Below, in pieces: positions 1 through 31,200 of a DNA stretch of 64,000 nucleotides. The translations under genes were made by a program, and so were the position numbers. The DNA is from Leucoraja ocellata (lineage: Eukaryota). Location of the stretch: contig JAWMAR010000086.1 in NCBI GenBank assembly GCA_036785375.1, positions 3,410,001 through 3,474,000 of the forward strand. Reading direction: 5' to 3'. The notes beneath the pieces are model-generated. The model did no database searches. It was not told the DNA's origin and saw nothing but the letters and a program-made list of their open reading frames with translations. The first letter of the stretch is position 1, and each line of letters begins with the position of its first letter.

Positions 1-271
1 ACCATTGACTAAAGGTTTTGATTCTCAACAGTTGAGCATTGAGGTGCAGTACTACAGCTGCTTTTCATCTGCAAATATTTATTTTTCTTCTCTTCCTTCC
101 ACTCCAAATCTTGATAACTGTTGATATCTGACAAACTATGGGATAAAAAAGATTTGTCTCATAATTTTAACAGATAGACTTAACTACTTTTATGCTTCAC
201 TTTTTCTAAAGTTAATGATTAAATGAAATATTGGACCCATTTAAATATTGTTACACAATTCTCTGTTTCAG

Positions 272-1592
272 GTAACATCAAATGAAAATAGAATATTCAG
301 TCCAAAAGAGTACGTACTTGCACCAGTGAATAAAGAGTCTCCAATTGCTGTTGTACCAACTGAATTACATCCATTTCATGAGGAGTCCGAACAGTTTATT
401 CAAAATGATATGGTGGAACCTGGGCTTGAAACATCACCGTATGATGGAGTGCCTCAAACCTCTAATCCAAGCCAGAAGGAAGTATGTTTGCTTGATATAA
501 CATTTGAGGATTTTCTCCCAGAGCAATTAGAACCTGTTGCTGCCATTGAAGCAGTTAAACAAACCACAATACTGGAGGAGGCTCTGAAGGAAATAGGGTC
601 GGAGCTATCAAACAAGAAAAAAAACACGGCTTTTGACAAAGATGAATATGATTTCAGTATTCCTTCAGCAGCATCTGGGGGTGCTCAGGATAAAGCATCA
701 GAAGGCAAATACTTTTCACAAATGGATTATCTGGAACACGCACTCTCTGATCCATATATTAAAGTTGTAGCGTCAGATAGTAAGTCTTCAGGGCCACATG
801 CAAATATATATGGCCATGTGTCTGATTCAAATCTAAATATAGGTGGGTATACATCTAACGTTGAACTTGCTGGGCCACGGTGGAATATTCATGGACATGC
901 TTCACAATCTAACATAAAGGTTGGTGATTATCTTTCTAACGTTGAGCCTTCTAGACCACGATGGAATATTCATGGACATGTATCACAAGCCAGCATACAC
1001 GTTGGTGAATATGTTTCAGATGTAGAGCAATCTTGGCCAAAACCAAACATTCATGGACATCCATCACAGACCAATTTACAAATTGGTGATGATGTTTCCA
1101 GTGTGGAATCATGTAGATCAAGATGGAACATCCATGGACATGTGCCACCAGCCAATGCTACACTTGGTAAAAATGGATCCAGTACAGAACCATGTGGGCC
1201 ACAGTTGAAATTTCCTGGTAAATCATTACCCACATTGCCTAAAATAGATGCAGAATCTCCTTCACTTGATTGGATATCTTTGGGGCATCCTTCTCAATCA
1301 AATATCAGAATAGGTGAATGGTCACCATATGTGGAAGCAAATCTGATCCCAAGGCTGAAATCAGCTGCTGGTCATTCATCTGATTCCACCATTCAAGACA
1401 TAATATACAATAAACAATCACCATCAGAAATAGTGGTGCCTAATGATGAAAATCTGAATGCTGAAACTGTACGTCCCCCCATTTCGAAAGAAGAAATGCA
1501 CATCGCTGAAGAATCCAAATTGATTACAGATCTTCCAAGTCCAGAATCTGAGCTAAATGGAAATGAAAACAAAAGTCAGGGTGAATCACAAG
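272..1592 (+). CDS. TUBGCP6: TUBGCP6 large repeat-containing exon
   Basis: Acceptor tgtttcag at 270-271 and donor AG/gtgaga at 1593. It lies inside ORF 248..1642 and encodes the GCP6 27-aa repeats. Confidence 0.92.
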
Positions 1593-4500: not shown

Positions 4501-7500
4501 TGGCTTCCACAGCCATCTGTGACAATGAATTCCACAGAGTCACCACTCTCCGACTAAAGAAATTCCTCCAACTCCTTTCTAAAGGTACGTCCATTTATTG
4601 TGAGGCTGGGCCCTCTGGTCCTAGACTCTCCCACTAGTGCAATCATCTCCACATCCACTCTATACAGGTCTTTCATTTTGATCAGTTTCAATGAAATTTC
4701 TCCACCCCCTGGTATCCTTCTAAACTCCAGCAAATACAGGCCCAAAGCTGGCAAATGCTAATCGTGCGTTAACCTAAACATCCCTGGAATTCAAAAGCCC
4801 ATTATTTTTAATTTGCATTATGTTTCTGAACCACCTCCTCTTCTTGAATATTCTAAGGTATCTTATCCTGCTAGGGTGATGTAAAAGTTTGCGTGCAAAT
4901 CTATTGAGTTCCTACCAGCAGTGTGATGCTGCTCTCAAGGGGACAGTTGGATGGAAATAACTTTAGAAAACTTGCCATTAGTTTTCTAAGTTATTCTCTC
5001 ATTGAGTTTTTATTTTGGAGAAAATGTATAATTGGTGAATTAGTCTTTTTTTCTTGACGGTCTTAATATTCTGTACTTTATTTACTGCCCCAGCTGAGCC
5101 TCCCATCTCGCATCTGCTTCAGAATATAGTAACGGAGCCCTGTTTACCACCCTTGGATCCTTCTGTTCGTAGAGCAACAGATGCAACAGCAGTACAAGCA
5201 AGCAGTCTAGTCTCACTTCCAGTACTGATGAAACACTCCATAACGGCACCTCTTATAGCTCAGTAAGTATTTATTGAAACTGCCATTGCTGTCTTAATTG
5301 CAGTTTAGGGCAGATAAAGCCCTGGCTCAAGAAACAATTTTTCTGTTTCTGACATGGACACTTTTCACTGATCCATTTGAAAAAAATCTGGCCATTTTAT
5401 TTACAGAGTTAGAGGTAAGTAAAATAAGTAGAGGAGAAAAGAGTAATCACACTACAGATAAAAAATATTTCTTAATGCACCTGACAAAGTTTGAAATTTT
5501 TCAGAGTAGGATTACTGTCTGTGGATTTTTATTTTTTTAACAAATAAGATTCTGTCTGCATCAAAATAACTATAGCATACTAAAATACTGAGATTTCAGT
5601 CTTTAATATTTAAACAAAATTTGAGATATTGCATTTAAGTTACTCTCTCTTTTCAGTGCTTCTCTGGTAAATAAAGCCATAATTGATTATTTATTTGTGG
5701 AACTGAACATTGAACAGAACTTTGAAGCGTTAAGACATTTCCTTTTGATGGAAGATGGAGAGTTTGCTCAATCACTTAGTGATCTGCTCTTTGAAAAGGT
5801 AAATTTAATTTCCTAGGCTACACTTCACACATCCATCAGAATTGCACCTGTGTGAAATGCAGAAAACATTTTACAAAATCCATTAGGTTTAACATTTTAT
5901 TGAGATATTGATGTTTATGTTTATTTGAAGCTGAATTTTTCAAACCGTTAAATCATTTATTATGGAGTATTTAGTTTTCTACAGGATTGTTTTATTAATA
6001 AATCTTAACCAAACGACAAGAATCTTCTGCTTGTGTCAAAAAGATCAGAAACCAGAACTGTTGAGCTTACGGATTAATTGGCCCAGGTTTAGCGAGTTAT
6101 TCTTTAATTCCAATATAAAGCTCACTTGCAATATAAAAAACGAACCGATGTCAATTAAAGAAGGTTTAAGTATTCCTTTTAATATGTTTATAGTTGATAC
6201 GAAATCAGACTGATGGTAATGATGAGCTGTTTTCCATGTTCTCTTAGAAGTTAATTAAATAGGTAAATTAGCTGTCATGGCAGTTTTCGTTCTCATTGGG
6301 TGTGAACAGTGGCAATAATGCAAGGAATTAATGACCATGCCCTTCCATGATGTTTTTGGCCACTGAGATTCAGAATTATTGAAATATGCAAGAGCTTTAT
6401 TAAATCCAGTATGTTAGAAATCAGTAACCATTTTAATGAAATCCTTCAAATGCATAAGAATATCTTTATTTTGCAGCACAAAGTGTAGTATACTCCTTTG
6501 AGGTGAGTTCTATTCCTATTGTCATTTTGTGTATTTGCATCCCTGGGAAATCAACTTACAGATTTGAATCAATGCCTTACCTTTCTTATTATTTCCAGGC
6601 GTTACCTTATTAGAAAGTGAAAAAAATAATATCTAGCTATGGCCACACATTGGTGTAGGTTCCTTCAAGCCAGAGTGATTGCATTTGTTCCTTTAGCGCT
6701 CTCAATCTGTTAGTGGTATCTGCACCTGGTATGGCTTTTATAATAATATAATATAACAATTACAGCACGGAAACAGGCCATCTCGACCCTTCTAGTCCGT
6801 GCCGAACACATAATCTCCCCTAGTCCCATATACCTGCGCTCAGACCATAACCCTCCATTCCCTTCCCATCCATATAACTATCCAATTTATTTTTAAATGA
6901 TAAAAACGAACCTGCCTCCACCACCTTCACTGGAAGCTCATTCCACACAACTACTACTCTCTGAGTAAAGAAGTTCCCCCTCATGTTACCCCTAAACTTC
7001 AGTCCCTTAATTCTCAAGTCATGTCCCCTTGTTTGAATCTTCCCTACTCTCAGTGGGAAAAGCTTTTCCACGTCAACTCTGTCTATCCCTCTCATCATTT
7101 TAAAAACCTCTATCAAGTCCCCCCCTTAACCTTCTGCGCTCCAAAGAATAAAGCCCTAACTTGTTCAACCTTTCTCTGTAACTTAGTTGCTGAAACCCAG
7201 GCTTTCCAAAATTTGTGGTTGCATTGCGATCCCGAGCTTGGATTTCTTGAGTAATATCATTGTTACAGTGACTACTAATCCCTTCATGCCATACTACCAC
7301 ACGATGTGGGATCTGCGATGTCCCTACGGAAGTAAGACTTAATGACCCCTTGAGGAAATAGCTAATGCCACTGAACTCATATTTCCTAGTACACATCAAA
7401 TGTGAAGTAAAACACCCAAGTCCATACACATGCAAGGCTAATTAATAAACTAAGTTCCCAGCGTGGTGCAAAGTTGCATGTTTTTATTCTTTCACTGGAA

Positions 7501-10500
7501 CTGTAAGGCAACATAAGCAGGTATTTCTTCAACTCGATGCAGCCCAAATCACAGAACATTCTTCATTCACTTGCTTAACGGTTTTTCATTTCTACAATAG
7601 TTTCCTATACTTCCACGTCTGAGATTACCGATTAGTTGGTTTCTAGAAGAACTAGATTTAATCGGATCCCAGCACTGACTGGTACAGTAAACCGTAGTAT
7701 TAACAGACCTCTTTATAACCAATTCCGGTTATAATGGACAGACCTGAGCTCCCACTGCCTCCTTGGCCTCTTACAACCCCGCTGCCCTCACAGTCCGGTT
7801 TTCACGGCTGTTATTTTGGCTCAAGTTGTAGCTCCTGGGGGCTGCACCTTCTTCAGGCCGCTGAAAAAATGACAAGAACCGGTTGGTCACTGTGGGGCTC
7901 CTTCCCCTATCAGCAGCTGCCACTTCTTTGTGTTGTCCATCACTTTGTCCGCTCCTCTCTCCACTGCCACGCCATCCTCCTTCCATCACTTTGTCCACTC
8001 CGCCATTGCCTCATCCTCCTTTTTGCCCGGAATTGCCAACATCTTCCAAGGTGGAGCGCGTCGGAGGAGAAGGTGGCGATGGGGCGCGGGGGAAGAGAGA
8101 CCGTCCAGTGGACGTGGCTGTTGTTGCAGTCCACATTGTAACCCCCAAAATGATGCACTCGGTCACCGTGTGTCTCCCTCCCATGCCGCTTCTTCCTTCG
8201 GTCGTCACTTTGTCTGCTTTGCCGCCTTTCCCCTCTCCACCGGAGCCCCTGACATCCCCCACCTTGGAACATGTCGGCGACTGCGGGGGTGGCGGTGGAG
8301 GAGGGAGCGACAGAGTAGACAAAGCGACGGGAGAAGTCAGCAGCGGTGGTGCGGGGAGTAGACAAAGCAATGGCCGACAGCTGTTAAGAGGGGAGGGAGC
8401 CCCACGGTGACCAAGCATGTCCTATCTGTGGCCTGCAGAAAACTTTGCTGGCCAGGGGCTACAAGGTGAACCGTAACAACAGCCGTGTCAGCTGGACCGT
8501 GCAGCTGGTATAGACCAGCAGTATCAGTGCCTAGTTTTAACGTGAAGCTGCACAATGTACTGGCGTAACTAGGCAGACTGAATCAGTCGGAAGAAGGGTC
8601 CCAACCCAAAAGTTCACCTATCCATTTTCCCCAGAGATGCATCCTGACCTGAGTTACTCCAGCACCTTGTATCCTTTTGTGTATTAACCAGCATCTGTAG
8701 TTCTTTGTTTCTACGACATACAATGATAATCCTTTGCTCATTTATAGCGGACAATCGGCAATAATGAACACCACTTCCCCATCCCCTATTGTCTGGTTTA
8801 ACGAGGATTTACTGTACCTAATTCATTGTTACAGAATTGCCCAATGAAATCTTTTTCCATTTTGATTGTCAGCTGGATTAAATTGTACATATGTTAAAAG
8901 TGATTATTTTGAACATTTTAATTAAAGAAATTCTGAAAGCATTCAATGGAGTACTAATTCCTGATCTTATTTTACTTAATAAATGTAACTTTAGTCTTGT
9001 GTATTGAAAAATCCCATTGTAATGTGTATTGAACTGGTGCTTCTTCTTTTAATAGCTTGGATCCGGACAGACACCAGGAGAACTTTTGAATCCTTTAGTT
9101 CTTAATTCAATTTTGAACAAAGCTTTGCAGTATAGCCTTCATGGAGACTCTAAGATGGCTTCTAATTTGACTTTTGCCCTGAAATATCTGCCAGAAATAT
9201 TCAAACCGAATGCACCCGATGCCTTGAACTGCTTGGAACTAAGATACAAGGTCACAAATCTTTCTTGCAAAATAAATATCTTTTGTATTTTTTATATTTT
9301 CTTTTCGGAAAGTTATTTAAATGATTTAATACATTTTCATTGAGAATTTGACTGTCAATAAACTGACTAGGTTGCTAACAGATACAAAGTGAAATGATGG
9401 AAAATTTACTTTAGTGAAACTATAGAGAAAGTTATAACATGGACCAATGCCACAAGTTTCAAAATGAATGGGACTTCTTGGGGGAAGGTGAAAACCGACT
9501 CAATATCAATGTAACTGGTAATCAAAATAGAGAGTAAATGTTACGGTTAAGAAAATAGTCATACACAATACTGACAGGGTGTAGAGTTATACGGCACAAA
9601 CCGGTCCTTCCTCCCAACTCTTCCATAATAACCAAGATGCCCAACTGATCATTTTAAGAGTTCATGATGCAGTGCCATTGTGATTATTGTACTGGGTACC
9701 TGGACGAGGCGCCGACGAACGAGAAGCCGAAGCAAAGAAGTCGAAACCAAAGAACCGCATGGAAACTAGGCCGAAACGCCTAATAACCGAAAGGATGGGA
9801 TGCTTAAAAGCCAACGAACCAAAAAACTGCGTCGCCTAAAAGCAAACTTACCGAATGGCCGCTCTGTCGAAACGCCACCTACTCGTAAGGCGGTGTCGCC
9901 TACAAGACAACGGACCGACTGCCGCTAAACAGAAAAGTCCAATAATGGACATGACGCTGCCGGGGGGCAGGACTGGTCAGCAATTGGTCCAGACCCCCGC
10001 GTCCATCACATCAGAAAGGGGAGACGGGATCGTGGGGGTCATAGGTGACTGCAATCTGAACTCAAGCACCAAGTTGAAAGCGGCCGAAGGTGCGCATCCC
10101 TCGGGACAGCCCACACCCACTCTCCCACGGCCACCCTCTGCGGACTGCGGGTCGGGTGGAGTGGAGGTGTGGGCCAATGTTCATCCCTTCACAGTGATAT
10201 GATGGACGCGGGGGTCTGGACCAATCGCTGACAAGTCCCCCCCCCCCCCCCCCCCCCCCCAGCAACGTCATGTCCGTTATTGGACTTTGCTATTGAGCGG
10301 CAGTCGGTCAGTTGGCTTGTACGCGATGCCGCCTTTCGGGCAGTTGGTGTTTCGGCCTCGTTTCCATTCGGTTCTTTGGCTTCGACTTCTTTGCTTCGGC
10401 CTCTCGTCAGTTGGCGCCACGTCCGCACACAATTGTACTGTTAGGAACAATATTATTACTGTTGGGAAAATAGGACACCAAGATAAGAGTATGGTGTAGA

Positions 10501-13500
10501 AGTTAGTTATCACGCTGGAAAAATTGAAGAATTTAGTTTACTCTTTTCAAAAGCTGTGGCCTAAGTTTCCAAAGCAGTTTATTCAAACAGGTAATCACTT
10601 CCGTTCTTCACTTTTTCACAAAAACAATGGTTCTTGGTACTAAGATTGGAAGACATTTTGTCAGTTTGGAGTTCTTTGGGGATACTGGATTTGAATGTGT
10701 CAGTCAAAATGTATGCAAATGTATATGAGGTGCATTTTTAAGTCCTATGATTAATCAAGTAATTAATATGATTTCAATGGATAATTAGAATTAATACTGG
10801 TTACATTGGGAAGAGAGGGATTGAGATCAAAGAGTGGATGTTAAATTAATTCATGATTTTTATCATGTTAAAAAAAATGATATGTTGGTGAAAGTAGAAA
10901 TTACTGGATATTGGAAAGCAACTATATTGTTATCATTGTAGTTGTACACTTTTTGATTTTAAGTTTTGTACTGTTCATAAATGTTATGACATGGTTCGCT
11001 CTAGTCACTCGTTAACTGATTTTTTTCCCAAATGGAACTTAATTGGTTCCCAAATGTTGTAAAAACTCATTAAATGCCTGTAACAATAAATGTTTGTATT
11101 TAAATAGTAAACGAGAACTACAGTTATGAAAGTTGCACCACAATGCTATCATGAATGCAGTATTGTACAATTTCACATGTGTTTTACTGCTTTTCTAATT
11201 TTTTTTTTGTAGGTGAATTGGCCTCTGAACATTGTAATCACGGAAAGCTGTATGAACAAGTACAACAAGATATTTTCTTTCCTGCTGCAGCTAAAGCATA
11301 TGGTCTGGACATTAAAGGATGTTTGGTTTCATTTAAAACGTACTGGTGAGAAAAATATTAGCTCTGGGTTCTTGAACATGGGTTGAGGATCATTGAAATG
11401 CTATAGGAAATAGTTTTTAAAATTGCATTAAAAAAACATTTGTGATTCATTTATTTGGTTGCAATGAAAGATAAAAGGTTAGATTTTAAGCAGAAGAGTA
11501 AATACATGTTTAGTAATGTGTGTATGTGTAGTAGTAGATTCATGTAAACAGCAAAGGTTTTATGGATAATCTTTGACTGCCAAGTCAATGTTAGCACATG
11601 GTGAAAGTTGATAATGATTGTTATGTACCTTAAGTGCCTTCATCTAAGGAGCTACTTTTGAAGTAGAACCTGTTTTTTTTTTCAGTTGTAGGATCATTAA
11701 AAAGAAATTAGAATCATCGAGGAAAGTCAGAGATGCCCAAGAGGTTCATAGATAGGAGTAGATGCCTACAGTGCAAAGGGTCTTCAGGCCAATGTGTCAA
11801 AACCATCAAACATCAATTTACACTAATCCCATTTTTCATCTCTCATTACCATCAACTAGCACCCCTCTCTGATTCTCTTGTCATCGACTTACACCAGGGG
11901 CATTAACCTACTGGTCATCGTATCTTTGATATGTGAGACAAAACTGGAGCACCCCGAGAAAATCCAGGGATATGTGCAAACCCCACACAAATTGCTTCAT
12001 GTCGTTGATGGCTATTTCTCTCTTTATTTAGATGCTGCATGGCCTGCTGCTTCTAGCATTTTTGTTTGTGTGAGAAGAGGGATTATCTACTCAAACTTCA
12101 TTCTCGGATAGGGAGAAGGGAAACTTGATGTTATTTATTTACAAATATGGAAAGTATGGATTTAGTACAGCTCTAGCTACAACATTCATTGTTGGTGAAA
12201 ATGGTTTAAATTATTGGAGATAAAAGGAAATTTGGGAAATTTAGTCATTTTTCTTCAGACAAAATGTAGATTTATTCCTATTGGAAAAGTATCACTCTCT
12301 TGTCAGCTAGGAAACCGATGATGTGGATAAACCATAGATCTTCTACACAAAGTATAACTTTAAGTTCAGGGAACATAGTATTATTGGAGTGCTTCTTAAG
12401 TTGTGAAGAAGGAATACAAATTTGTGAATTGCACATAAATCTCTTTATATTATGTACCACAAACTGTAACCATATTCAGAAATTGGAATAGATAGATGAC
12501 CTGTCATTGTGATATTTACATTTAAAGTTAGTCAAAAATAATTAGGACTATCTAATTTAATTCACTGTTATTACCACCTACAAATGCAGGTCCCATTTGT
12601 TTTGTGTCATCGTTCCTTTCAATTTTGCAGATTGAAAATTTTAACTTGTTTTTATTTTAGCTTTAGTTAACCGTTCTTCAAATTCGGTCCAGTTGCACCA
12701 GCTTCAACTCTATCGACATGAAATGCAGCATTTTGTCAAAGTCATTCAAGGTTACATTGCTAATCAAATTTTGCACGTTACTTGGTGTGAATTCGGACAC
12801 AAGTTGTCATCAGTTGGAAATCTGGATGAACTCCACAGAACACATGCAGAATACCTCAACAAAGGCATTTTCAGGCAAGAATTTCTGTACTTTTGTTAGC
12901 AGCATTCTGAGAGAGTTGCTTAACATATCTTTTGTAATTAAAATTATTAGGTTGCATGTTTCCTTTGATAACTCAATAAATGTTGGGGGAGAATAACTAA
13001 TGAGACTGTTGTGAAGGAGCCTTTCTGGCTGTCAGCTAATCATTGTGTTAGACGCGAGATAAACTGACCTTTTGTTTAATTATGATGATATGATTATTGA
13101 ACAGTGAAATGAGAAATATATCATTAATCTGGAGAATAATCCAAATCATTTGCATTTGTTCTAAAAAGGTGGGAATCCATTTTGATGGGAAGATTCTGAG
13201 CTAACAGTGCAATTAAAAAATCACATGGGAAAATGAAATAAACTCAAATTCAAGTTGAAATTAATGTGACCATTAGATACACGTCTAATTATGTGATCAA
13301 AACGGGAGGTGGGAGGGAGAGATTGAATAGAAATATAAAAAGTGCATATCCAGTTGTCTGGTTGGCAAAAGAAGCACTTTGTAGTTTTTAATCTCTATCG
13401 GATTAAATACTTTAATTTTGGATTTACCAATTGGATTGTCATGTAAGTAGCACCCAGAGTAGACAACAGAATGATGCAGATTGTATTGTTCTTGTAAATG

Positions 13501-16209
13501 GTGATATTGCATACTTGAACCAAAATCTTTGTTTATTTTCAATTACAGAGGGTTATTGACTGAGAAAGCTGCTCCAGTGATGAAGATCATTCACAATATT
13601 TTTAGCTTGATTCTGAAATTCCGCAGTCAATTGATCTCTCAAGCCTGGCAACATGATGCTGATGATCAAATGGCAATACATCCTAACTTTGTTATGATGC
13701 AGCAGTCCTACAAATCATTCAAACATTATTCACACTTCCTATTTAAAGGTAACACATTTTCAAATACTGTCAATCTGTTACAATTAATTTGGAGGTAAAG
13801 TATACTAAACATCTTACTAATTCTGTAACTGAATGTAAACATTTCAAAATAATGGTGAAAATGGATATCACAGGCAATTAAGTCCACAATCTCTTTATAA
13901 CCAATTTTGGTTATAGAGGTTCCCCGACACTTAGTCCTGCTGCCCTCACAGTCCAGTTTTCACAGATGTTGTTGTAGCTCACGTTGAACCCCCTGGGGGC
14001 AGCACTTTCTTCACCTGTTGGTGACTGGAGATTTCTGCCCTATCACCAGCTGCTGCTTCTTTCTGTTATCTGTCACTTTGTCCGCTCCCCTCTCCACTAC
14101 CATGGCATCCCCTTTCTCCCATCTCTTTGTCCATTTCGTCGCTGCCTCCTCCTTCTCGCCCGGAATCGCCAACATCTGCCGAGGTGGAATGCGTTAGGGG
14201 AGAAGGAGGAGGCAGCACTAGTGGGGGAGGGGCGCGGTCAGGGTGCATCAGTGAGGCCTTCACCAGCTGCCCACCATCCAGTTGACGTGTCTGTTGTGGC
14301 AGTCCACATTGTAGCCCCCGACAGGATGCGCTCGGTCACCGTGTTTCCTTCCACTGCTGCTTCTTCTCGTCATTTTGTCCACTTTGCTGTCGCCGCCTTC
14401 TCCACTGGAGTCCCCAACATCCCCCACCTTAGAACATGTCGGCGACTGCAGGGGACGAGGTGAAGCAGGTGGCGGTGGAGAAGGGAGCGGCGGAGTGGAC
14501 AAAGTGACGGGAGGAAGCAGCAGCAATGGTGGAGTGGGGAGCAGAAAAAGTGATGGCCGACAGGAAGAAGTGGCAGTTGGTAAGAAAAATAGATATCACT
14601 TGCAATCAAGTCCACTATCTGATTTTTGTATTAGATCATTGAGTGAACATAGGTGAACAACCTAAAAACAGTAGCATTACCACAACAATGGACAGTTTTA
14701 ACTTTTTTAGTTACAGTTAATGGTTTATTTTATGAAACAAAATTATTAAATACCCAGCTTAGGATAATTAGTGGTTTTGATGTAATGGAAACAAAGCAGT
14801 GCTTTAAAATACGTACATTCACTGAAGATTTGAATGGGATGTGGGCTTTGCTAGCATTATTACCCATTCCTAATTGTCCTGAAGATGTTAGCCACCTTCT
14901 TGAACTGCTGCATGGCTTCTGGTGACAGCTCATAGGGCTAGTTTGAGGATTTTGATCCAGTGTCTTTGAAGGGATGCTTGTGACGGAGGCAAACCAGCAG
15001 ATAGTTGTGTTCACATGTGCCATGTCTTGGTGGGAGAGATCACAGGTTTGGAAATCATGTAATTTCCAGGTAAGGTAAGATGCAAGACAGTAATTTTAGC
15101 TTATGTAGATGTATCTACATTGTGATAAGACAGAATTAAAAGCCTTTCAAAAATATTCTGTTTTACATTATACCAGAGGCAACATGTCACATTTTGATTG
15201 TGATTTAGGCTATTCATATTCAGCTCATTGAGTCCATGTTGGCCCCCAGAGCAATATCATTCTTGTCAACATTATATACCACTTTTTCCCTGTAACCTGT
15301 TTTCTCATAGATATCAACTCCACCTTTAGTCTCTTATGGGCCAGCTAGACTAGGGTAATTAACCCAACACCCAGCTCATCATAGGGATGTGGTCGAAAAC
15401 TTCAGCACCCAAGGGAAGCCCAGGGTCACCAAAGTTGTGAGATGGTAGCCATAATTGCTGGACCACAGTGCTGCTAAGAATGTGCAGAATTCTTTCATTA
15501 CAGCACTCTCAAAGCAGTGGGTGTTTCTATTAGACTCTGTTTATTCAAGGACAGTCAGCTACAAAATGAACAGTCTGCATTGGTGCTCTATGAAAGGGAA
15601 TTCAAAACATTCTGCCCAATTCTTTATTTCTTTAAGGATCTTTAGGATACAATTCCATGGGTGTTGTTGATCGGTTAGTACATTTTTCCCCACTCACCAA
15701 ATTGAACAGGTGGCAGAATTGCAGGCTAGGACCAAATAAACTAGCATTCATGGACTCTTCTTCCTCCCAGCCTATGAAGTGGGGTTGTTTGGCACAAATA
15801 GTAATTGCATTTCAAACATCAGACATTGCTTACTGTTTGTGAAGTGTGGGAAGATCAGCTATTTAAATTCGATGATTTTTGAGATCTTGTAGGTGGCTGT
15901 TGTGCATATGCCTTTCACCTAGTGTTGAAGATGCAGATGTGACTTTAAGATCTGTTGGAGCCGGCATAAGAGGTCTTAACATGTTAATTTATGTTGCTTT
16001 GGAAAAATATGGTTCTTTTAGATCAGTTTGTTTAGAAATGTGAAATTTCACAAGAAAATGTAACTCTTTCCCAAAGTCTTCTGATCTTTTATTTTTTTTC
16101 CCCCATCTCATCCCTAGTGGTCACCAAACTTGTCAATCGGGGCTATCAGCCACACCTTGAGGACTTCCTGCTGAGAATTAACTTCAATAATTATTATCTA
16201 GATGTTTAA
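272..16209 (+). CDS. TUBGCP6: Gamma-tubulin complex component 6, 3' part (10 coding exons, 926 aa + stop; 5' exons lie upstream of the window)
   Basis: Exons 272-1592, 2154-2239, 3659-3887, 5094-5262, 5657-5798, 9056-9250, 11213-11345, 12661-12874, 13549-13748 and 16118-16209 join in phase (2781 nt). The translation has GCP6 hallmarks: RWNIHGHVS repeats, EALRHFLLMEDGEFAQSLSDLLFEK, VNWPLNIVIT, HEMQHFVKVIQGYIANQILHVTW and the C-terminus VVTKLVNRGYQPHLEDFLLRINFNNYYLDV*. Confidence 0.97.
791..1195 (+). repeat. Coding tandem repeat, 5 x 81 bp (27 aa), GCP6 repeat region
   Basis: Units start at 791, 872, 953, 1034 and 1115: GPHANIYGHVS, GPRWNIHGHAS, RPRWNIHGHVS, WPKPNIHGHPS, RSRWNIHGHVP. Two degenerate GHxS units follow. 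Confidence 0.93.
1725..2077 (-). mobile_element. CR1-type LINE 3' fragment
   Basis: Reverse complement of the CR1 3' end (acagtacagcac...caagccctttgacccaca...tctcataattttatatacttctatc), shared with many copies in the window. Confidence 0.75.
2154..2239 (+). CDS. TUBGCP6: TUBGCP6 small internal exon (poorly conserved region)
   Basis: Acceptor tcttttgtag and donor GAG/gtattt. Its 86 nt bridge phase 1 to phase 0 between the flanking exons (ANYEKDAINEHPQK...FQDE). Confidence 0.75.
2374..2687 (+). mobile_element. tRNA-derived V-SINE (HE1-like chondrichthyan SINE) with CR1-derived tail
   Basis: Pol III A box (tggtgcagcgg), B box (ggttcgatcc), V-domain-like core (tttgtacgttctctccgtgac...gtttcctcccacac) and tail gggccgaagggcctg...ccgtgctgtgtctctaaa shared with CR1 3' ends. 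Confidence 0.85.
3659..3887 (+). CDS. TUBGCP6: TUBGCP6 exon
   Basis: AG acceptor and gtaagc donor. Encodes KKDPFEPQ...LWDKEEAYLKSLADQYCVEHYQDNYELM, homologous to the GCP6 segment before the C-terminal GRIP domain. Confidence 0.88.
4335..4790 (-). mobile_element. CR1-type LINE 3' fragment
   Basis: Minus-strand ORF remnant LGLYLLEFRR...LYRVDVE...VGESRTRGPSL typical of the CR1 ORF2 C-terminus. Confidence 0.8.
5094..5262 (+). CDS. TUBGCP6: TUBGCP6 exon
   Basis: cag acceptor and gtaagt donor. Encodes SEPPISHLLQ...LPVLMKHSITAPLIA. Confidence 0.95.
5657..5798 (+). CDS. TUBGCP6: TUBGCP6 exon
   Basis: tttcag acceptor and gtaaat donor. Encodes ASLVNKAIIDYLFVELNIEQNFEALRHFLLMEDGEFAQSLSDLLFEK. Confidence 0.96.
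6739..7200 (-). mobile_element. CR1-type LINE 3' fragment, relatively young, with short-repeat tail
   Basis: ORFs 7100..7435 and 6820..7116 give LSYRERLNKLGLYSLERRRLRG and MIEVFKMMRGIDRVDVEKLFP...TRGHDLRI...FFTQRVVVVWNELP, separated by one frameshift. Confidence 0.92.
7685..8814. mobile_element. Non-autonomous Tc1/mariner-pogo (Tigger-like) DNA transposon with GC-rich interior
   Basis: TA-flanked termini TA|CAGTAAACCGTAGTATTAACAGAC and GTCTGGTTTAACGAGGATTTACTG|TA form imperfect 24-bp TIRs. A second truncated copy lies at 13889-14580, and a Penelope-type short repeat is nested at about 8580-8715. Confidence 0.75.
9056..9250 (+). CDS. TUBGCP6: TUBGCP6 exon
   Basis: aatag acceptor and gtcaca donor. 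Encodes LGSGQTPGELLNPLVLNSILNKALQYSLHGD...LNCLELRYK. Confidence 0.96.
9695..10431. mobile_element. Non-autonomous Foldback/Mutator-like DNA transposon with long modular TIRs
   Basis: 9-bp direct repeat ATTGTACTG at 9686-9694 and 10432-10440. Inverted arms at about 9695-10013 and 10194-10431 are built of (G)CCGAA-like subrepeats. Confidence 0.8.
11213..11345 (+). CDS. TUBGCP6: TUBGCP6 exon
   Basis: ttgtag acceptor and gtgaga donor. Encodes VNWPLNIVITESCMNKYNKIFSFLLQLKHMVWTLKDVWFHLKRT. Confidence 0.96.
12661..12874 (+). CDS. TUBGCP6: TUBGCP6 exon (ends at a GC donor)
   Basis: ttttag acceptor. Encodes ALVNRSSNSVQLHQLQLYRHEMQHFVKVIQGYIANQILHVTW...HAEYLNKGIFR. Donor is AG/gcaaga. Confidence 0.93.
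13549..13748 (+). CDS. TUBGCP6: TUBGCP6 exon
   Basis: ttacag acceptor and gtaaca donor. Encodes GLLTEKAAPVMKIIHNIFSLILKFRSQLISQAW...YSHFLFK. Confidence 0.96.
13889..14580. mobile_element. Second, truncated copy of the Tigger-like element at 7685-8814
   Basis: Colinear similarity in the same orientation (ctctttataaccaatt..., gctgccctcacagtcc, cactttgtcc repeats, gcagtccacattgta, aacatgtcggcgactgc). Confidence 0.8.
16118..16209 (+). CDS. TUBGCP6: TUBGCP6 terminal coding exon
   Basis: ccctag acceptor. Encodes VVTKLVNRGYQPHLEDFLLRINFNNYYLDV, with TAA at 16207-16209. Confidence 0.97.
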
Positions 16210-16536
16210 CTTTTATGATGTCTTATTGAAAATGGTATCTAAATTACATCATATAAATATTTAATTTTTAAACATAATGCTAAGTATTTGTCCATGTACA
16301 TATTTGTATATCTGTGATATATCAACATCAGTGTTGTGGAACATTTTATGCCACAGTTACACAAATATAAAGAGATTTGTGATGACACAGGTCAGCATTT
16401 ATAACTTATTATGCAGGGAGATTAGCATGACATTCAAATTTACTATTCTGCCATATTTATAATTAAAACAATGTTTTTAAAGCTGTTTATCTTGATGCAC
16501 GCTTATTTTTAACTGTGTCTTACTGTATTTTCTTTG

Positions 16537-16542
16537 AATAAA
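16537..16542 (+). promoter_or_regulatory. Candidate polyadenylation signal of TUBGCP6
   Basis: First AATAAA after the stop codon, about 330 nt downstream, in AT-rich UTR-like sequence. Confidence 0.55.
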
Positions 16543-17791: not shown

Positions 17792-17822
17792 TTTATTTAC
17801 TGTTTGTGTATTGATATTTATT
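17792..17822 (-). promoter_or_regulatory. Candidate distal polyadenylation signals of SELENOO
   Basis: Two minus-strand AATAAA (17817-17822 and 17792-17797) about 220-250 nt downstream of the SECIS. Confidence 0.55.
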
Positions 17823-18029
17823 GCTGCATTTCAAAGGCAAGACATCTATACAACTTGCATAAATTTAAAAAAACATCAGTTTGTTTACAACCAAATTGCT
17901 ATTTTAAATAGTGTATACATATATAAAAGGTTCCTCAGAAAAGCATAGTGCAAATTATCATGCAAGGAATTAAAGCTGATTTGTGCGTTAACATTTCTTA
18001 AAATGTTGAGCATTTTAAAAGAGTACAAC

Positions 18030-18105
18030 AGTTTCCACATCTTACAAAAATAGCTCTGTGTCAGAGTTGATATTTTTGTATTCATGATAACAGATTTTAG
18101 CTGGA
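18030..18105 (-). promoter_or_regulatory. SECIS element (type II) in the SELENOO 3' UTR
   Basis: mRNA sense reads AUGAA-UACAAAAAUA-UC-AA-CUCUG-ACA-CAGAG-C-UAUUUUUGUA-AGAU (core 18039-18085). It shows the AUGA/GA quartet, a perfect 10-bp helix II, unpaired AA and a 5-bp apical mini-stem. Helix I is weaker. Confidence 0.9.
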
Positions 18106-19100: not shown

Positions 19101-19286
19101 TTATGAAGATCAGGTAACTAAAAGTTTCCCAGACCAGTCTGGTGGCTTGCTGTGGTATGGTATTCTCTTGTTGCTTAAAGGCTCACATGAAGCTGGAGCC
19201 TCCACTGTTGCTTCTTGCATCAGCTCTTCTTCCACGCAGGCATCCTCACTGTATGGATGCTCCAGAAGCTTGAGAACCCGTCTGAC
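19101..19286 (-). CDS. SELENOO: SELENOO exon 9 (terminal, contains the Sec codon at 19110-19112)
   Basis: ctttag acceptor. Encodes [61 protein letters not shown]. Confidence 0.93.
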
Positions 19287-22200: not shown

Positions 22201-25200
22201 AGAGGGTAATACAGCAGAAGGTAAGGGTTGCATTCACAAAAGGTTCCGAACCACACTTCCTGGGTGAATTGGAATACTTTTCGTACCTTACTCACACCTA
22301 TTACTGTGCAAACTTTAAGAGTACCTTATCAGACACTAACCTGCAGAAGGATTGTTACTTTGCACTTAACCTTTGAAATTGATGTGGTAAAATCTACCCA
22401 CCTCTGAGAAGTCCCCATCCTCTGCAGCTGATATTGCATTTTGTGCAATGTAATTTCTCAGGATAAATTTGGGGTTGTTTGCATTCATCACCTTCACACG
22501 TTCAGCTTTTAGTTCAGCAACATCATCCACACCTTCTGCTTCATTCTCCAAACGAGACCTGAAAGGGACCAAAAACAAATACCTACATCTTTTCAGATAT
22601 AAAACATTTTGAAAGTTCAAAGATGAACACCAATAATTAACAGCACAGAATCTAACCCTTAGAAATACATATTAAAACTTTCTGTCATTACCTGAAAACA
22701 TCGGACTGGCTGCGGAGGCCACAATAGGCCAGAAGGAATAGGGTGAACAGTGGATGGGACTGGACTTTGCTGCCTTCCCCCACAGTGGGAACCATTGTAG
22801 GGTGGCGTTTTTATGTCTATTGTTAAATTCTTTAATGTTGTGTCTTATCTTTATTCGTGTGCTGCAATGGCAAATCGAATTTCACTACACCATTTGGTGT
22901 ATGTGATAATAAATGTCCTTTGTATCCTTTGTTTCTATAAGATCCCCTCGTCCATCTAAATTCCAGTGAATACAAGCAAGTTCGACCCATTCTTTCATAT
23001 GTCAGTCCCGTCATCCCTGGAATTAACCTGGTGAACCTACGCTGCACTCCTTCAATAGCAATAATGTCTTTCCTCAAATTAGGAGCCCAAAATTGCACAC
23101 ACTACTCCAAGTACAACTGCAGAAGGACCTCCTTGCTCCTAAATTCAAATCGTCTCACAATGAAAGCCAACATGCATTAGCTTTCTTCACTGCTGCTGTA
23201 CCTGCATGCTTACTTTCAGTGACTGTTGTCCACTTGGCCCATAACTCTCCAAACCTTTCCTATCCATGCCCCTGTCTTAAGCATCTTTTAAAAGTGGTAA
23301 TTATACCACTTCTGGGAACTCGTTCCATGTATGCATCACTCCTACCACGTAAGTTGCCCCTCAGGTGCCTTTTAAATCATCCCATTCATTAACCTGTAGC
23401 CTCTATTAGAGAAAAAAAATTGGTTGTTCACTGTATCCAAGCAATTCATCATTCTATACCACTCTTACCCTTCAGCCTCCTAGGATCCAGGAAAAAGACC
23501 CAGCTTTTCCAACCTCTCCTTATCACTCATATCCTTCCACCTGCCATATGTTTATTTAAATCTTAAGAAATCTATTTCAACTTCAGATTTTTGTCTGTTG
23601 CAGCTTCGAACCTGTACTTCTGCAGCCAGTCAGTCCATGCTTTCTTGAGTTTGCTCAGTAGCTCTTCTGTTGTCATCTGCTGGAGCTCGGAGAAGCGCTC
23701 TATGCGATCCATCTCTATAGCAACTCCTCGTTTGTCTCCAATCAGTTCAAAGAGTTGTGGGTTGGATTGAGACAGGGCCAGCAATATGGACAGCTGCCTG
23801 AGTGGACAACCAGGACATGATCATAATCTAGCTCACAGTGCCTTAAAAAATATATGTACATAAAAACAGACAAATTACTGTGCATGAAACACAACACAGG
23901 CAGGAGGCAGGGCAACAGCGGTGCTGAAACAATTAAAAAACACGCCAACACACTCAGCTGGTTAGACAGCATCTGTGGAGAGACAATAAAAGTTAACCTT
24001 TTAGGTTAATGATCTTTCATCAGAACTGAAAAAGTGAGAAAACAAGTGCTCTTTAAACTAAAGGGGGGGGGGGGAAGGATGTGTAATTGGGAGAGTAGCG
24101 CCAGCAATGGCTGCCTCGCCAACAGTCTGTCTGTCCTTTCTTCTGTTTTGTTATTTTAAGTATGTGTTAAAGAGTATGCTTTCGTGTTCCTTGATTTGTT
24201 TGATGTGGGGGGTGGGGGGGACTTGCCATCGTGGAGCTTGCGATCCCTTTGCCGGGGATCGACTGTGGAAAGCTCCAACCGCGGGCCTGTGGACTTTAAC
24301 ATCGTGGAGCCCGCGGTCCCCGGTTAGAGACCGATTCGGGAACTCCAAGCCACGGAGAGTTTCAACCGTCTCGACGCGGGAGTTTCGATAACCCCGACAC
24401 TAGCGCTTCGGATCGCCGGCTGCGGGAGCATTGATCGCCCCGACCGTGGGAGAATAAAGAGGGAGAAAATTGGACTTTATTACCTTCCATCACAGTGAGG
24501 AATGTGGGGAGCCGCTGTGGTGGATGTTTATGAAAACTTTTATTTTATGTGGCTGTGTGTCTTTTTGCTTTTCACTTAATATGGCTGTATGGTAACTCAA
24601 ATTTCACTGTACCTTAATTAGTACATGTGACAATAAACTGACCTTGAATAGGTGTAATAGGGAGAAGCATAATTTTGTACTATACACACAAATATTTTCA
24701 ATGTTGGCAGCTGGAAAGAGAAATAAAAATATTGGCAGGCTGCTGAAAATAACAAGCAGATAGGCTGTATCCATGGAGATAAAAAAAAACCTTAGTTAAT
24801 GTTCGAGATGGATGACCTCGCATCAGAACAGACTAGTTAATGGAAATTGCTGAATTCGGTAGAATTATAAAATTTACAAAAAAAGGTCTGAAGAAGGGTC
24901 CCGACCCTCAACGTCACTCATCCATGTTCCACAGAGATTCTGCTTGACCCACTGAGTTACTCCAGCACTTTGTGTTCTTTGCTGAATTCAATGGTCTGGA
25001 AGCTTGCAACATGCAGCAATGGAAAATGCAGTGCTGCTCCTTGATTTTATGTTGTACACCAGTGGAAAAGTGTAAGTTGCCAGAATCACACATCTGGACT
25101 GAACATATAGTGATCATCCACTCTGTGCTTGATTTCTCCAATGAAAAATAAACTGCATTGTGACCACCAAATGCAAAACATGGCAGTAGAAAATTCCAGT

Positions 25201-28200
25201 CCTCTGTCACTTTCATTCCCCATCCCTCTCTGATAACTCCATTTTCGATTTCCCTGAGTTCTATGACACTGAACCTGCGCTTGAGGAACAGCACCTTTTC
25301 TCCCATTTATGCATGTTACAGGCATCAGGACTCAATGTTAAATTCAACAATTTCATCTAACCTTTCCAATTTGTATTAGATCTGGCCAGCTCATGCAAGG
25401 TCATCTACCTCAAACATTAGCTTGATTTTTCCGTTTTGGTTTCAGATTTGCAACAACTAAATTCTTGTGCTTCAATAACCACTGTGCTGCATGGACGGAA
25501 TTAATTGTATATTTTTACAAAGCAATATTCTATTAATTGCTTTTATAACATAGAGTAAATTAAAAAAAAACAACTAATAAATCACCTAAGTAAAATTTTA
25601 ATTAAATGCTCATACACAACTTTCCCTTAATATAAAAAACTATGACAAAGCACTACACTTTCTTACCGTGGATCCATACTTGGTGTGAATGCTAATTTCA
25701 GCTCTTCTAGTGATGCACACTGTTCAATCAATTTTGCAAGAAATTCTGCAAATGTGAAAGAAGTGGACGATCCAGGAATTGGAAAATCACTAAGTAAACG
25801 GAAGGAGTTTGTAAAATCTGCACCTGAATGGAGCAAAGAGATGTAATTTAAAATGTGCTTGCATTTCTAGCTCATTTAATTTGCAGTCTTCTCTGTACAG
25901 ATATGGCATTAAGCATATGTCTAGATTTTGTGGTTGTAATTGTGAAAGTCGGAAAGTTCCACGTATGATACGAATTACTGAATACTGAATTACTGTTGGT
26001 GACTTAGCAATAAGCACTTAGATTGCTGCTGTGAATTTACAAAATAGCATCATTGTAAAATAGCGTGAAGAGTCAAGCTTTGTGATAAAGAGATGCAAGC
26101 AAGCTTTCAAAATAATCTACAATTAATTGTTAAAGTCCTTCGACCTAATATCCAATTGTATTGGAATTGGATTAAGATTAACACAGATTTTTTTTTTTTT
26201 TTTTAATAGATCTAAAAGTATTTTGTGATGATTATTTGGTATTTGCACGTTTCAATCTTTAGTTTATAGCGTGCTTATCACTTCCCGTATACATTTTGGG
26301 AATATTTCAGTGGGATTCACCACCGCTAATTTATAATCACATTTGTATACTCTGGTTCCTCAGAACCATTACCTGACAGCAACTGGAATTATAAAAGAGA
26401 TGGTGCATGCACAGACAACACAAGATCTTTTGGGGACAACTTTCTTTATGGCTGGTGGTAAACGCAAATTCCACCATGTAAAAAATACCAATTATATTTA
26501 ATCTGGGTGTATTTAGCACTGGCATTTCAGATATTACTCTAGCACCCATGGATGAATGGCATATTTAAAATCAAACCTCCCCCACCCTGTCAAATCTCCC
26601 GTTCTCTACTTCACTACACCTATTTGTCGCTTAACGAGGAGATAAAAAAGGTGCACGGAATTACGTAGAATGATAGCAGGTTTTTTTTTTAAGGAATGGT
26701 TAGAAAGGGAAAATAGAATAAAGAATGAGGAGCAGTTTGTAAATAATCTTGGATATAGGCTTTGAGGATGCATATAAAAATTTCAGAGGCATGGTTAATT
26801 CTATAGGAAGCATAAAACTATCCTACAAACCTGTTGAATGGAAAACATGCAATAGATCAGAAACTAACGCTTCATCCTCTGCCTTCTCACATCTAAGTAG
26901 ACCCAATTTTTTCCTCATCTTTTGCAGGAAGTGTTGGTCAAACTCTGAATTAAATTCCTCTTCAATGATAGACTGACCCACTTCCAGGGTAAGCTCAGGA
27001 ACCAGGACTTCTGCCAGTTTGCCCAGATTCCATTTACAGATTTCAGGTTGTCGGTTATAAGCATAACGGCCTCTGTTATCAGAAGCATTACATACAAAAT
27101 CCGGATCAAACCTTGAATGGTTGGAGGAAGAAATGTATCATTATACTGATCATGGCTCATGCAATCTTTGCAATAAAATAGATTACTTGAATTTGATTAT
27201 CTATGACCTTATCTACATTATTTGTACATTGAAAAGCAGCACTTCTGCAAGTAAAATAAAGCAATATGTGGCTGCCAAATAAAAATCACATGCAACCTAC
27301 TGCAAAGCCTAAGAAAATGTTGTTCTTTGTATTAATTAAACAATAAAAAAAAGAACACTTTTCATTTCTACAATGCAGCCAAATTACCCAAAGTGCTTAA
27401 CAAGAGCACTTTTACTTAGCAAGGATACCAAGCAATTCCAGATCTTAATAAGTGAGACAAAGTTAAATTCTTTCAGCGATGATCCACAATGTGCATCAGT
27501 CCCGACCACAGACTAACACTCATTGCCCAAAATATTCCAGTATTGTTAGGTAAATTATTGTCACAGAGCAAGATCACAAATCAGTGCCAGGTTAAGAAAC
27601 CCAAGATCACTCGGAATTGAGTTCAGCTACTCCAACTAAAAGTCAAGCTTTTAATAGAATGGCGCAAAGTTATGTGCTTTACATCAGAGGCAAGATAGTT
27701 AATAGATAATCTGATATAAATTTAAAAGGTAATAAAATATAACGGATAAAATAAATTTCAATAGAGGGTTAGATTTAGCTCTTAGGGCTAAAGTAATCAA
27801 GGGATATTGGGAAATAGCAGGAACGGATTACTGATTTTGGATGATCAGCCATGATCATATTGAATGGTGGTGCTGGGTTGAAGGACCGAATGGGCGACTC
27901 CTGCACCTATTTTCTATGTTTCTATGATGATAAATTGCATCTATTGGTTAGTCAGATAAGTCAAGATCACAAAAACAGGAAAATTAGAATGTAGACAGCC
28001 TATTGCAAGCTATTATTGAAGCATTAAATAAAATCCTTTGTATTATTAAATATACAACGGAGATAACAAAAAAATTGAAATCGATGTGAATAACATGGAT
28101 AAGAATACTAGCATGAAAGGGACAATTTCTCATTGCTATGAATGATTCCAATGCAGATTTATCAGTTCATTACAGATATCATCCAGTTAATTAATAGCAC

Positions 28201-31200
28201 AAACTGCAAAACATACAAGTTCAGTGAATTGTTAGAATGGTCCTCATAAAATACATAAACCAATTTAAGAATGATATTGTAAACAAGTTTAACAAATAGA
28301 TTAAATACTACAATTGAGTCAAATTTGTTTTCGCATTTTTAATTAGCATGAATTAAGAGTTGCCTTCTAAATTGGCAGTCTTTTGATCTGGTATTGATCA
28401 TAATTAGAACAACAATGTATGGAGGTATTCCATAAGGTATCCAGCACAAGATTCATATATAAAAAAAGTTAACTGCTGAGTTGAAAAGTTGCCGTCATAC
28501 AGATTTCATGCTTTGATTCAGAAGAAATGGGTGGTTGCTTGCAGAAGTTTTTTTTTGTTGGGCACACTCAATATATCCGACGGAACAAGAATTAGACAAC
28601 TATACCAACCTTTCTTCAGCATTACATGTCTACAATCCAGTATACAACATCACTCAACTAGAATTTACTAAAGCTCTAAGAGCATTTTGTTTCTAAAACC
28701 ACAAGGTTGAAACAAACCAGTTTTGTGTGGGTCCAGTAAATGGCCAAATAAAATTATTGACTAGGTAAATTTTGATTTTTAGCTGATGTAAATCCGAAGG
28801 ATCAGAACTTAACATACGTTTTCATTAATAATCCAATTTCAGTGACACATAATCAATGATAATATGTGCAAGAAAAAACAAACCTGCAAAAAAAACCCTG
28901 AAATTATGTGTTGACATAATATTAAAGGTACTGAAATTTTAAAGGCACTAAACAGCCTGAAATCCCTCAGAAATTCCTTCACCCAGCTAAAGAAAAAGCA
29001 GCACGAGGCAAAAAGATAAATAAAGCAGCAGACAAATTCAAAACCAAGGGAAAAATATCGGCAGATGCTAAACACGTGTAATAAAAACTGAAAATGCTGA
29101 AAACACTTAGCATGTCAGGCAGCATCAGGGGAAGGAGAAACAACATTAATGTTTCATGTCTGTGACTTCTGAACTGGGAAAAAATTAAGATTCATTTTCA
29201 TTATGAAAACAAGTTCAATGAAACAAAGTTAATAACCAGAAGTACAAGAGAAAATGAACATGCAGTTCTAACTAAGGGTCGCCCATCTAAAGTCAACTCT
29301 GTTACTCTTTCCGTAATTAGAATGTTTTCAGCATTTTCTGTTATTTAATAACCTCATTGCAAGCCATCATTAATATTAATGTGGCATGCCATAAAACGCA
29401 GAGGAAACAACTTGTTATACTCAACACTATGGTTTATTTGGCAACAATATTTAGATAAAATTATCACCATAAAACTATAAATAATTTCCAGTTACATTCA
29501 AAATCTATATACCTGTCCATAAAGCCAAAAGGTCCATAGTCGATGGTAAGTCCTACAATGCTCATGTTGTCTGTGTTTAGTACACCATGACAAAACCCAA
29601 CACACTGCCATTCAGCAACCAGCCGGGCTGTCCTCTTGGTTACCTGTAGATTTAGAAACATAGATGAGTGGGAATGGCAGCAGGCCATTCAGGCCTTCGA
29701 GCCTGCTCCACCATTCAATACCATCATGCCCGATTCTCAGTATGGACACCAAATTCCCAGTCTCTCTAAAATCCCTCGATATGTTTTATGCTGTTGAAAA
29801 TTTGTTTTATCACCATAAATATGTTCAACATCTTAGCCTCCTCCAGTGGTATAGAATTCCATTTGTAAACTAGCCTCTGGATGAATAGCTTTTATGCCTA
29901 CATATATTATCCCACATCCTGAGACTATAACCCTCTCCCTCACTCCATTCACCAACCCCACTCCATTCCACCCCACCCCTATTCCATTACTCCCCCATTA
30001 GCTCTAGACCTGACCCCAGCCAGCACATTTTTTTTCTTTATATAAAATTTTGAAAAGTACCCCATTTCTACGAATTTAGTTGCCAGTGTGCGTTTAGTAT
30101 TGGTTAAGGGAAATGCATCCTCACACCAATTAAAGGAATCAAACACTTAAGCATCTGCATTTCCTGCTTCCAATAAAACATCAGTCAGAGGTGTTAAATG
30201 CGCCAAAGCTTGTCATGTGATCAGGGTCACCCAGCCTGCAAGATTGCTATACACCATTACTACTTGTCTTCTTCATTGATAACAGAATTTGAATTGTGTG
30301 TTTTTTTTTTGCCCTGAACTCAGGTCCATTCAAGCAGAGACTCTCCAGAACTTAATTTTGCATTCATTTTCATTTTGCTTAACTACCTCATATGAAGAGC
30401 CTCAATTTATGCTGACCACACCTTGAAAAAACAATCTAAATAAGGTAAGAAGAACCTTATTTAGATTGTTTTTTCAAGGTGTTGTCAGCATAAATTGAGG
30501 CTCTTCATAGGACTCCATTTATTTGGTTAATCTTGTCTAGCATTTTCTGCTGTCTCCAATATAGATTGTTGACTTTGTCAAGACACGAGACCCATGAGAA
30601 GGACAACGCATACCTCAAAGAGACAGCAAACATGTCCTTGTGCAGCCACTCTGACCTGGTCCAGTACAGATGATTAATTACTATTTGTCCTTTCCAGACT
30701 GCTCCCAAAATTTGCCTTTGTCGCAAGTGCCCATCACCATAAAAAATAATAAGATTAATCCAAGGCTAAATATTTCCTGTTATAAAATACAGCCAAAAAT
30801 TATCCCATGTATTTTTCTCTTAATGGGAAAACATGTCACTACATCTAAGATTTGCACGCAGCTCGTTAAACAATAATGTTCATTTTTCATTGAGTATTTT
30901 TCACATCTAATTTTAATATATGAAGTGGAGGAGTGGGTAAATAACTAGTTTTGAATGAACCTCAGGTGAGATCAATTAACGTGACCAAGAACCAAATTTG
31001 GAACCTTCCTGGCTTGCGAGATTTCAGATTTGAAATGTGCATGAAAATGAACATTTTTGCATGGTCACAATTTCAAAATATATAGCAGTAAAACAAACTT
31101 GTATTCTCTTTGAATGTTATGTTGCAACAAACAAGGTAATTAAGAAAAGCTGACAAGTTCTTACTTCTCTGAAGAAAGCAGCATTCCTCTGTGCCTTGTC

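Follow-up and report, generated by a model that had tools for sequence, protein, structure and literature searches.

An Intact Chondrichthyan SELENOO Gene with Leucine in Place of the CxxU Cysteine and a Probable Terminal Selenocysteine

Introduction

The CxxU motif at the C-terminus of SelO has been called conserved or said to typify the metazoan branch, and has been read as a thioredoxin-like pair in the accessible portions of three papers (PMC3281104, PMC3994087, PMC7278666). The available text of Dudkiewicz 2012 describes single-Cys and lone-Sec tails, with CxxC or CxxU in 12 of 143 representatives, and states that most of the metazoan branch has the motif (PMC3281104), and that of Han 2014 mentions distant sequences without the Cys (PMC3994087). 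In the 64,000-nucleotide stretch of Leucoraja ocellata DNA analysed here (the window), a SELENOO gene ends in an in-frame UGA with Leu at the position of this Cys. The locus raises the question of how a terminal Sec would work without the upstream Cys, and whether that Cys was lost in this lineage or gained in others. The first-pass annotation regarded the tail as an unusual natural test case for the redox mechanism. The reading preferred here, with a rough probability of 0.68, is that of an intact chondrichthyan SELENOO1 in which UGA is read as Sec, a lone Sec672 acts like the terminal Cys of E. coli YdiU, and Cys669 is a later gain. No report of a Cys-less shark SelO tail or of a lineage pattern was found in the literature, although supplementary alignments may already show it. 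Chondrichthyan SELENOO genes are included in the gene tree of a 2026 vertebrate survey (Fig. S12), the accessible part of which holds no comment on the SELENOO tail motif (PMC13134290).

Results and Discussion

Structure and Orthology of the Gene

SELENOO lies on the minus strand as nine exons from 35119 to 19101 (Table 1), separated by eight introns that are all GT-AG. It encodes a single frame of 674 residues, the sole internal stop being the UGA at codon 672. The Pfam SelO family PF02696, with a gathering cut-off of 22.8 bits, is matched above that value by exon 1 (62.1 bits), exon 5 (70.8 bits) and the near-identical Logan protein P0276 (383.9 bits). The pseudokinase motifs are intact, namely K172 (the beta-3 Lys), D334/N335 and D344, together with C360, and both D334 and C360 stand at the same offset from their E. 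coli counterparts D246 and C272. The Cys or Sec required by the family third from the end corresponds here to UGA-Ser-Ser-stop, with a putative Sec. The N-terminus encoded by exon 1 is probably a mitochondrial targeting peptide. Its leader at 35119-35041 (minus strand) comprises 26 Arg-rich residues counted from the first ATG, and P0276 starts at Met27; either the first ATG or Met27 may serve as the start codon.

In a tree of 64 rows, obtained by a quick method with SH-aLRT values only and without bootstrap, the protein falls in the chondrichthyan clade (SH-aLRT 100), beside sharks and within vertebrate SELENOO (99); the same tree places the coelacanth with the chondrichthyans, contrary to the accepted species tree. 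The gene order in the window is TRABD-SELENOO-TUBGCP6, which is the human order as well. The gene is an intact chondrichthyan SELENOO1. A distant SELO-like paralogue and a pseudogene were both considered, and are ruled out by the tree, the synteny and the unbroken frame. Orthologues from Mustelus, Stegostoma, Chiloscyllium, Heterodontus and Callorhinchus (P0002-P0004, P0281, P0282) are 75-80% identical to P0276 and share the LLVT tail, Lys667, Cys360 and Cys630, the remainder being ordinary divergence. Human and mouse SELENOO, mitochondrial AMPylases/NADases ending in CVTUSS, resemble the skate gene in PF02696, the catalytic motifs, the activation-loop Cys, a (here predicted) Sec third from the end and a type-2 SECIS, but carry Cys664 where Leu is found here and an acidic residue at 667 where Lys is found.

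Table 1. Positions in the window of SELENOO, its key codons and 3' elements, and the neighbouring genes.
Feature	Position	Strand	Remarks
SELENOO exon 1	34578..35119	-	ATG; Arg-rich, acid-free N-terminus; K172 of ELQIKGAG; PF02696 E=5e-17
SELENOO exon 2	31455..31658	-	
SELENOO exon 3	31165..31345	-	
SELENOO exon 4	29513..29643	-	HGVLNTDN with D334 (= E. coli D246); DYG with D344
SELENOO exon 5	26831..27111	-	PF02696 match; carries activation-loop Cys360
SELENOO exon 6	25667..25823	-	
SELENOO exon 7	23612..23797	-	
SELENOO exon 8	22402..22558	-	
SELENOO exon 9, coding part	19101..19286	-	Ends LLVT-Sec-SS-stop (Sec predicted)
Cys360 codon TGT	27090..27092	-	Activation loop, exon 5; aligned with E. 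coli position 272
Cys630 codon	19236..19238	-	Variable linker, last exon
Leu669 codon TTA	19119..19121	-	Position of Cys in mammalian CxxU
In-frame UGA, putative Sec672	19110..19112	-	SECIS downstream
Type-2 SECIS	18039..18085	-	AUGAA core, perfect 10-bp helix II, unpaired AA, 5-bp mini-stem, AGAU core
Two AATAAA signals	17792..17822	-	At 17822 and 17797; probable mRNA 3' end, downstream of SECIS
TRABD	44242..54345	-	Upstream, same strand as SELENOO; outer ends approximate
TUBGCP6, 3' part	245..16209	+	Downstream of SELENOO, convergent; ends approximate

Decoding of the UGA

A pattern scan of the 6 kb downstream of the UGA located a type-2 SECIS 1025 nt after it, an element that the first-pass annotation did not mention. 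A stricter pattern, composed after the hit had been seen, recovered it as the sole hit without mismatches when both strands of the window were scanned. Among 500 dinucleotide shuffles of the 1321-nt UTR, the strict pattern arose in 1, and in 6 when one mismatch was allowed. The 47-nt hairpin folds with a z of -4.1, and the 101-nt region reaches a z of only -0.6 because helix I is weak. The unpaired AA differs from the CC of mammalian SELENOO, and an AA form is reported for non-mammalian SelO SECIS elements in the accessible part of PMC3316567. None of the listed runs that contain the stretch itself is recorded as RNA, which says nothing about expression. Raw RNA reads from a close relative (run X24, of which approximately 3 in 100 were sampled) accumulate at 17756-18075 in minus-strand orientation, overlapping the SECIS and extending downstream of it. 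Since this 3' pile lies by the two AATAAA signals, the mRNA extends past the SECIS, which is therefore located within the SELENOO transcript, its reach being seen in the relative. The UGA is very likely read as Sec through this element, and a correct Sec-containing SELENOO gene model with its SECIS is thereby obtained.

Database proteins could be taken to indicate a plain stop, with the protein ending at Thr671 and its Sec function decayed. Of the 115 tails, 114 break off immediately ahead of the Sec position, and the remaining one skips the Sec; moreover, Rfam returned no SECIS match, either at the gathering score over the window or at E<=10 over 15500-19110, and a truncated form would still AMPylate. 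A plain stop is nevertheless highly improbable, as the UGA is followed by the Ser-Ser-stop of the family and by a strict SECIS that is unmatched elsewhere on either strand and arises in 1/500 shuffles, while the mammalian entries in the same collection are also truncated, so that truncation is uninformative. The expectation of the first-pass annotation that standard annotation would cut the protein at the UGA was thus borne out by these tails, but it extends to mammals and may reflect how the collection treats Sec.

Two further observations concern these elements. In the relative represented by run X11, 2 bases are missing at 18057-18058, in the apical mini-stem and loop of the SECIS, and no substitution is listed in the core or helix II, the divergence being too low for this to weigh much. 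Shark and ray isoforms P0005, P0008 and P0280 (Heterodontus, Mobula, Scyliorhinus) are without the last exon, and hence without Sec; Sec-less SelO splice forms are described for mammals in the accessible text of PMC3316567.

The C-Terminal Tail and its Leu Codon

The minus strand at 19145-19101 reads CCA CCA GAC TGG TCT GGG AAA CTT TTA GTT ACC TGA TCT TCA TAA, giving the tail L-L-V-T-UGA-S-S-stop. A contig of run X20, which bears the same organism label as the best-matching run but comes from a separate study, covers 18927-19288 with 0 differing letters, so that neither TTA nor TGA is an assembly error. This contig continues approximately 200 letters beyond the exon-9 acceptor, in the manner expected of a spliced transcript, exon 8 lying outside the compared stretch and the RNA origin of the run being only a guess. 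Contigs of runs X11 and X18, from two other organisms, show 28 and 32 differences across the region, 0 of which fall within 19101-19145 among the 40 rows listed. Logan proteins P0001, P0276, P0277 and P0279 likewise end in LLVT. A sequencing or assembly error at the TTA was considered, and is excluded by the X20 contig and these proteins. The Cys three residues before Sec that defines the teleost and tetrapod CxxU is replaced here by Leu669. Our results agree well with the first-pass annotation on several points: the in-frame UGA is kept and the CxxU Cys is absent (on the minus strand, no strand having been given), the Leu codon for which a check in reads was proposed is real, the activation-loop Cys is retained in exon 5, and the E. 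coli tail also lacks the upstream Cys, Glu being present there.

The neighbouring position 667 also differs among lineages. Lys667 (codon 19127-19125, minus strand) is found in 6/6 chondrichthyan rows; Glu occupies this position nearly always in other vertebrates, and mostly Asp or Glu in invertebrates. In the latter the acidic residue is paired with Arg669, and in E. coli the two charges are exchanged. The pattern suggests that residues 667 and 669 may form an i, i+2 pair of charges in an exposed strand. Furthermore, along the SelO tail the hydrophobic residues 668 and 670 are fixed and residues 667 and 669 are variable and frequently charged, an alternation like that of a beta-strand. Such a strand would place residues 669 and 672 on opposite faces.

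Residue 669 across Lineages

Among vertebrates, the shark protein gave 614 hits, the best 120 of which were used; 115 of these 120 have a recognisable tail, the other 5 rows (isoforms or mispredicted ends) being dropped. Position 669 is Cys in 106 of these 115, Leu in 5, and Arg, Ala, Ser and Gly in 1 each. All the Leu rows are chondrichthyan, comprising Mustelus, Stegostoma, Chiloscyllium, Callorhinchus and the protein near-identical to the SELENOO described here; a cluster look-up adds Heterodontus, so that Leu669 is present in 5/5 named chondrichthyan species with the last exon. Arg is found in the coelacanth, Ala in sturgeon and paddlefish, Ser in the armadillo and a tree frog, and Gly in the salamanderfish. 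Teleost and tetrapod clusters, again within the best 120 of 614, have Cys669 in 106/108.

For invertebrates, the best 120 of 128 hits to a crinoid query, plus two flukes, gave 26 named species, 3 of them without a tail; the query itself has Arg at 669, which may bias the candidates. Cys669 occurs in 0/23 of the species with a tail, which have Arg (18), Lys (2) or Val (3). These proteins, from molluscs, echinoderms, hemichordates, a tunicate, a coral, a sponge, an annelid and flukes, resemble the skate protein in the absence of Cys669 and in ending at VT or VS, but differ in the residue found there; they are known from proteins, and it is from these endings that a Sec is presumed. Of 150 distant representatives, 113 have a recognisable tail and 37 do not, and in 79 of the 113 residue 669 is not Cys. 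Cys669 is present in some non-animal lines, namely Volvox, Platysulcus and three proteins falling outside the named animals. A search with the SELENOO last exon alone returned 2 proteins. Cys669 is a feature of teleosts and tetrapods among the animals sampled. Judged from these alignments, position 669 behaves as a labile, exchangeable site, occupied by Arg, Lys, Val, Leu, Ala, Glu or Cys.

A species-specific loss of Cys is ruled out by Leu in all five named chondrichthyans and by non-Cys residues in other lineages. The view of this tail as an unusual natural test case has to be given up, since Cys-less tails occur in all five of those chondrichthyans, sturgeon, paddlefish, coelacanth, armadillo, a tree frog, one teleost and 23/23 invertebrates. 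The first-pass annotation had itself allowed that, once C-termini were compared, its observation might prove true but not unusual; this is largely the outcome.

It should also be mentioned that the SelO proteins of the liver flukes Opisthorchis and Clonorchis (P0131, P0284) end at VT, as UGA-cut proteins do, and may thus keep Sec. Those of Schistosoma japonicum and Taenia solium are reported as Cys forms (PMC3828610).

Direction of Change at Position 669

A Cys-less start is the simplest reading of this distribution, because all the named outgroups are without Cys669 and the coelacanth shares their Arg. A hand count on the accepted species tree, for a sampling without lamprey, hagfish, amphioxus, bichir, gar and lungfish, requires 2 steps for two gains and 3 or 4 for an early gain followed by losses when Cys is scored against non-Cys. 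If the individual residues are counted, neither scenario is shorter, since Leu and Ala add one step apiece in any case. In the genetic code, a single base change suffices for Arg to Leu or for Arg to Cys and two are needed for Cys to Leu, so that an origin of the shark Leu from Arg is slightly favoured. The CxxU Cys was therefore likely acquired later, by teleosts and tetrapods, and not lost by the skate. What is modestly new here is that the SelO CxxU, described as conserved, seems to be a derived form, possibly gained twice. This corrects a common description of the motif and reveals no new system.

An opposite course would be the loss of an ancestral CxxU Cys in cartilaginous fishes, with a lineage-specific resolving residue of the last exon, Cys630, taking its place. 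Cys630 is present in 6/6 chondrichthyan rows and in 0/42 others, the alignment being loose there, and trapping experiments suggest a resolving role in the human protein; on sequence grounds Cys630 is a possible stand-in. It is located, however, where a poorly aligned linker begins, and neither Cys is found in sturgeons, the coelacanth and 18 invertebrate rows. The two base changes of Cys to Leu, against one for Arg to Leu, also count against such a loss, which we regard as quite unlikely.

A broader scenario in line with late gain of Cys669 is offered tentatively, and may well prove wrong. The CxxU would not be an ancient thioredoxin-like motif; a lone catalytic Sec, in the form R-x-x-U, would have come first in animals, and teleosts and tetrapods would each independently have added a protecting Cys through a single CpG-type Arg to Cys change, with sharks, rays, sturgeons and the coelacanth still without it. 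If so, swaps between fish and mammal residues at 669 would isolate the effect of a resolving Cys on a selenium-dependent mitochondrial NADase.

Possible Roles of the Terminal Sec

E. coli YdiU/SelO (PDB 6III, 6K20, 9JYM) offers the closest model for a tail of this kind. It shares the PPDW..L-x-V tail without upstream Cys and has the D246 and C272 equivalents, but differs in its terminal Cys instead of Sec, in Glu at the position of 669, in being approximately 190 residues shorter and in having no targeting peptide. A Cys272-Cys476 disulfide, with the tail docked near the active site, is described for it in the accessible text of PMC7278666, PMC8097203 and 10.1101/692707. Pairing with the activation loop is thus already the published E. 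coli mechanism, and it needs no upstream Cys, because the E. coli disulfide forms with Glu at that position. Regarding NAD+, commentaries on Jia et al. 2026 (Cell), as far as their available text goes, state that its hydrolysis is catalysed by the terminal Sec/Cys667, that AMPylation does not require this residue, and that NADase activity is lost in the C667A mutant (PMC13391479, PMC13443136). AMPylase and Mn-dependent NADase activities are known for E. coli and human SelO only. An AMPylation assay alone would consequently be the wrong readout for the terminal Sec.

Cys360 is retained in 118/120 vertebrate clusters (2 unscored), in 48/48 animal rows tabulated and in 18/18 aligned invertebrate rows. 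The activation-loop Cys is absent in 45 of the 79 scorable Cys-tailed representatives, whose rows are not phylogenetically independent. The latter count would fit a role of the tail Cys or Sec beyond the switch, and the retention of Cys360 would fit a switch kept in animals. The first-pass annotation proposed that the Sec cannot act through a local CxxU pair, which is supported by Leu669 and the absence of an upstream Cys, and that it more likely pairs with the activation-loop Cys. Such pairing gains from the retained Cys360 and the E. coli precedent, but as the main role of the Sec it is doubtful.

In its strict form, that proposal would make the lone Sec only a redox partner of Cys360, regulating AMPylation without any catalytic role. 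The E. coli disulfide and the near-universal vertebrate Cys360 are compatible with it, as is the presence of the activation-loop Cys in 25/30 scorable representatives whose sequences stop at the point of a UGA truncation; an inhibitory switch would also render the Sec dispensable for AMPylation. The 45/79 rows that keep a tail Cys without its partner, their non-independence allowed for, and the reported loss of NADase activity in C667A speak against a purely regulatory Sec, which is considered unlikely.

The preferred reading, a lone Sec672 with both functions, may be summarised by analogy with YdiU. The UGA would be decoded as Sec672 via the downstream hairpin, and the Sec-Ser-Ser tail would, by homology, reach into the active-site cleft. 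There, Sec672 would catalyse NAD+ hydrolysis; once oxidised, it would bond to Cys360 through a Se-S bridge and act as an off-switch. No upstream cysteine would be needed, as for the terminal Cys of YdiU. The limitation of Cys669 to teleosts and tetrapods among the animals sampled fits a Sec that acts against the enzyme's own active site.

Where Cys669 is present, it is likely an accessory resolving residue. In the accessible text of Han et al. 2014, SxxC trapped more redox partner than CxxC (PMC3994087), a result in favour of a genuine resolving function of this Cys in human SelO. Its strong retention, in 106/108 teleost and tetrapod clusters, also speaks against an idle residue. For human Cys664, the literature yielded neither AMPylation nor NADase data, and Leu, Arg and Ala are natural residues with which it could be probed.

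Other Features of the Locus

Several minor features were observed around the gene. Just 3' of the SELENOO end, a high-copy repeat, perhaps SINE-like, occupies 17590-17660, with a summed depth of >400,000 in two DNA runs. The TUBGCP6 exon at 245-1639 (plus strand) is long and has internal repeats. Intron 8 apparently holds two LINE-type remnants in opposite orientations at 19450-21950, two frames from which gave no match to Pfam. Upstream of SELENOO, a short frame at 36352-36615 (minus strand) matches PF09004 with 49.8 bits and is probably a retroelement remnant.
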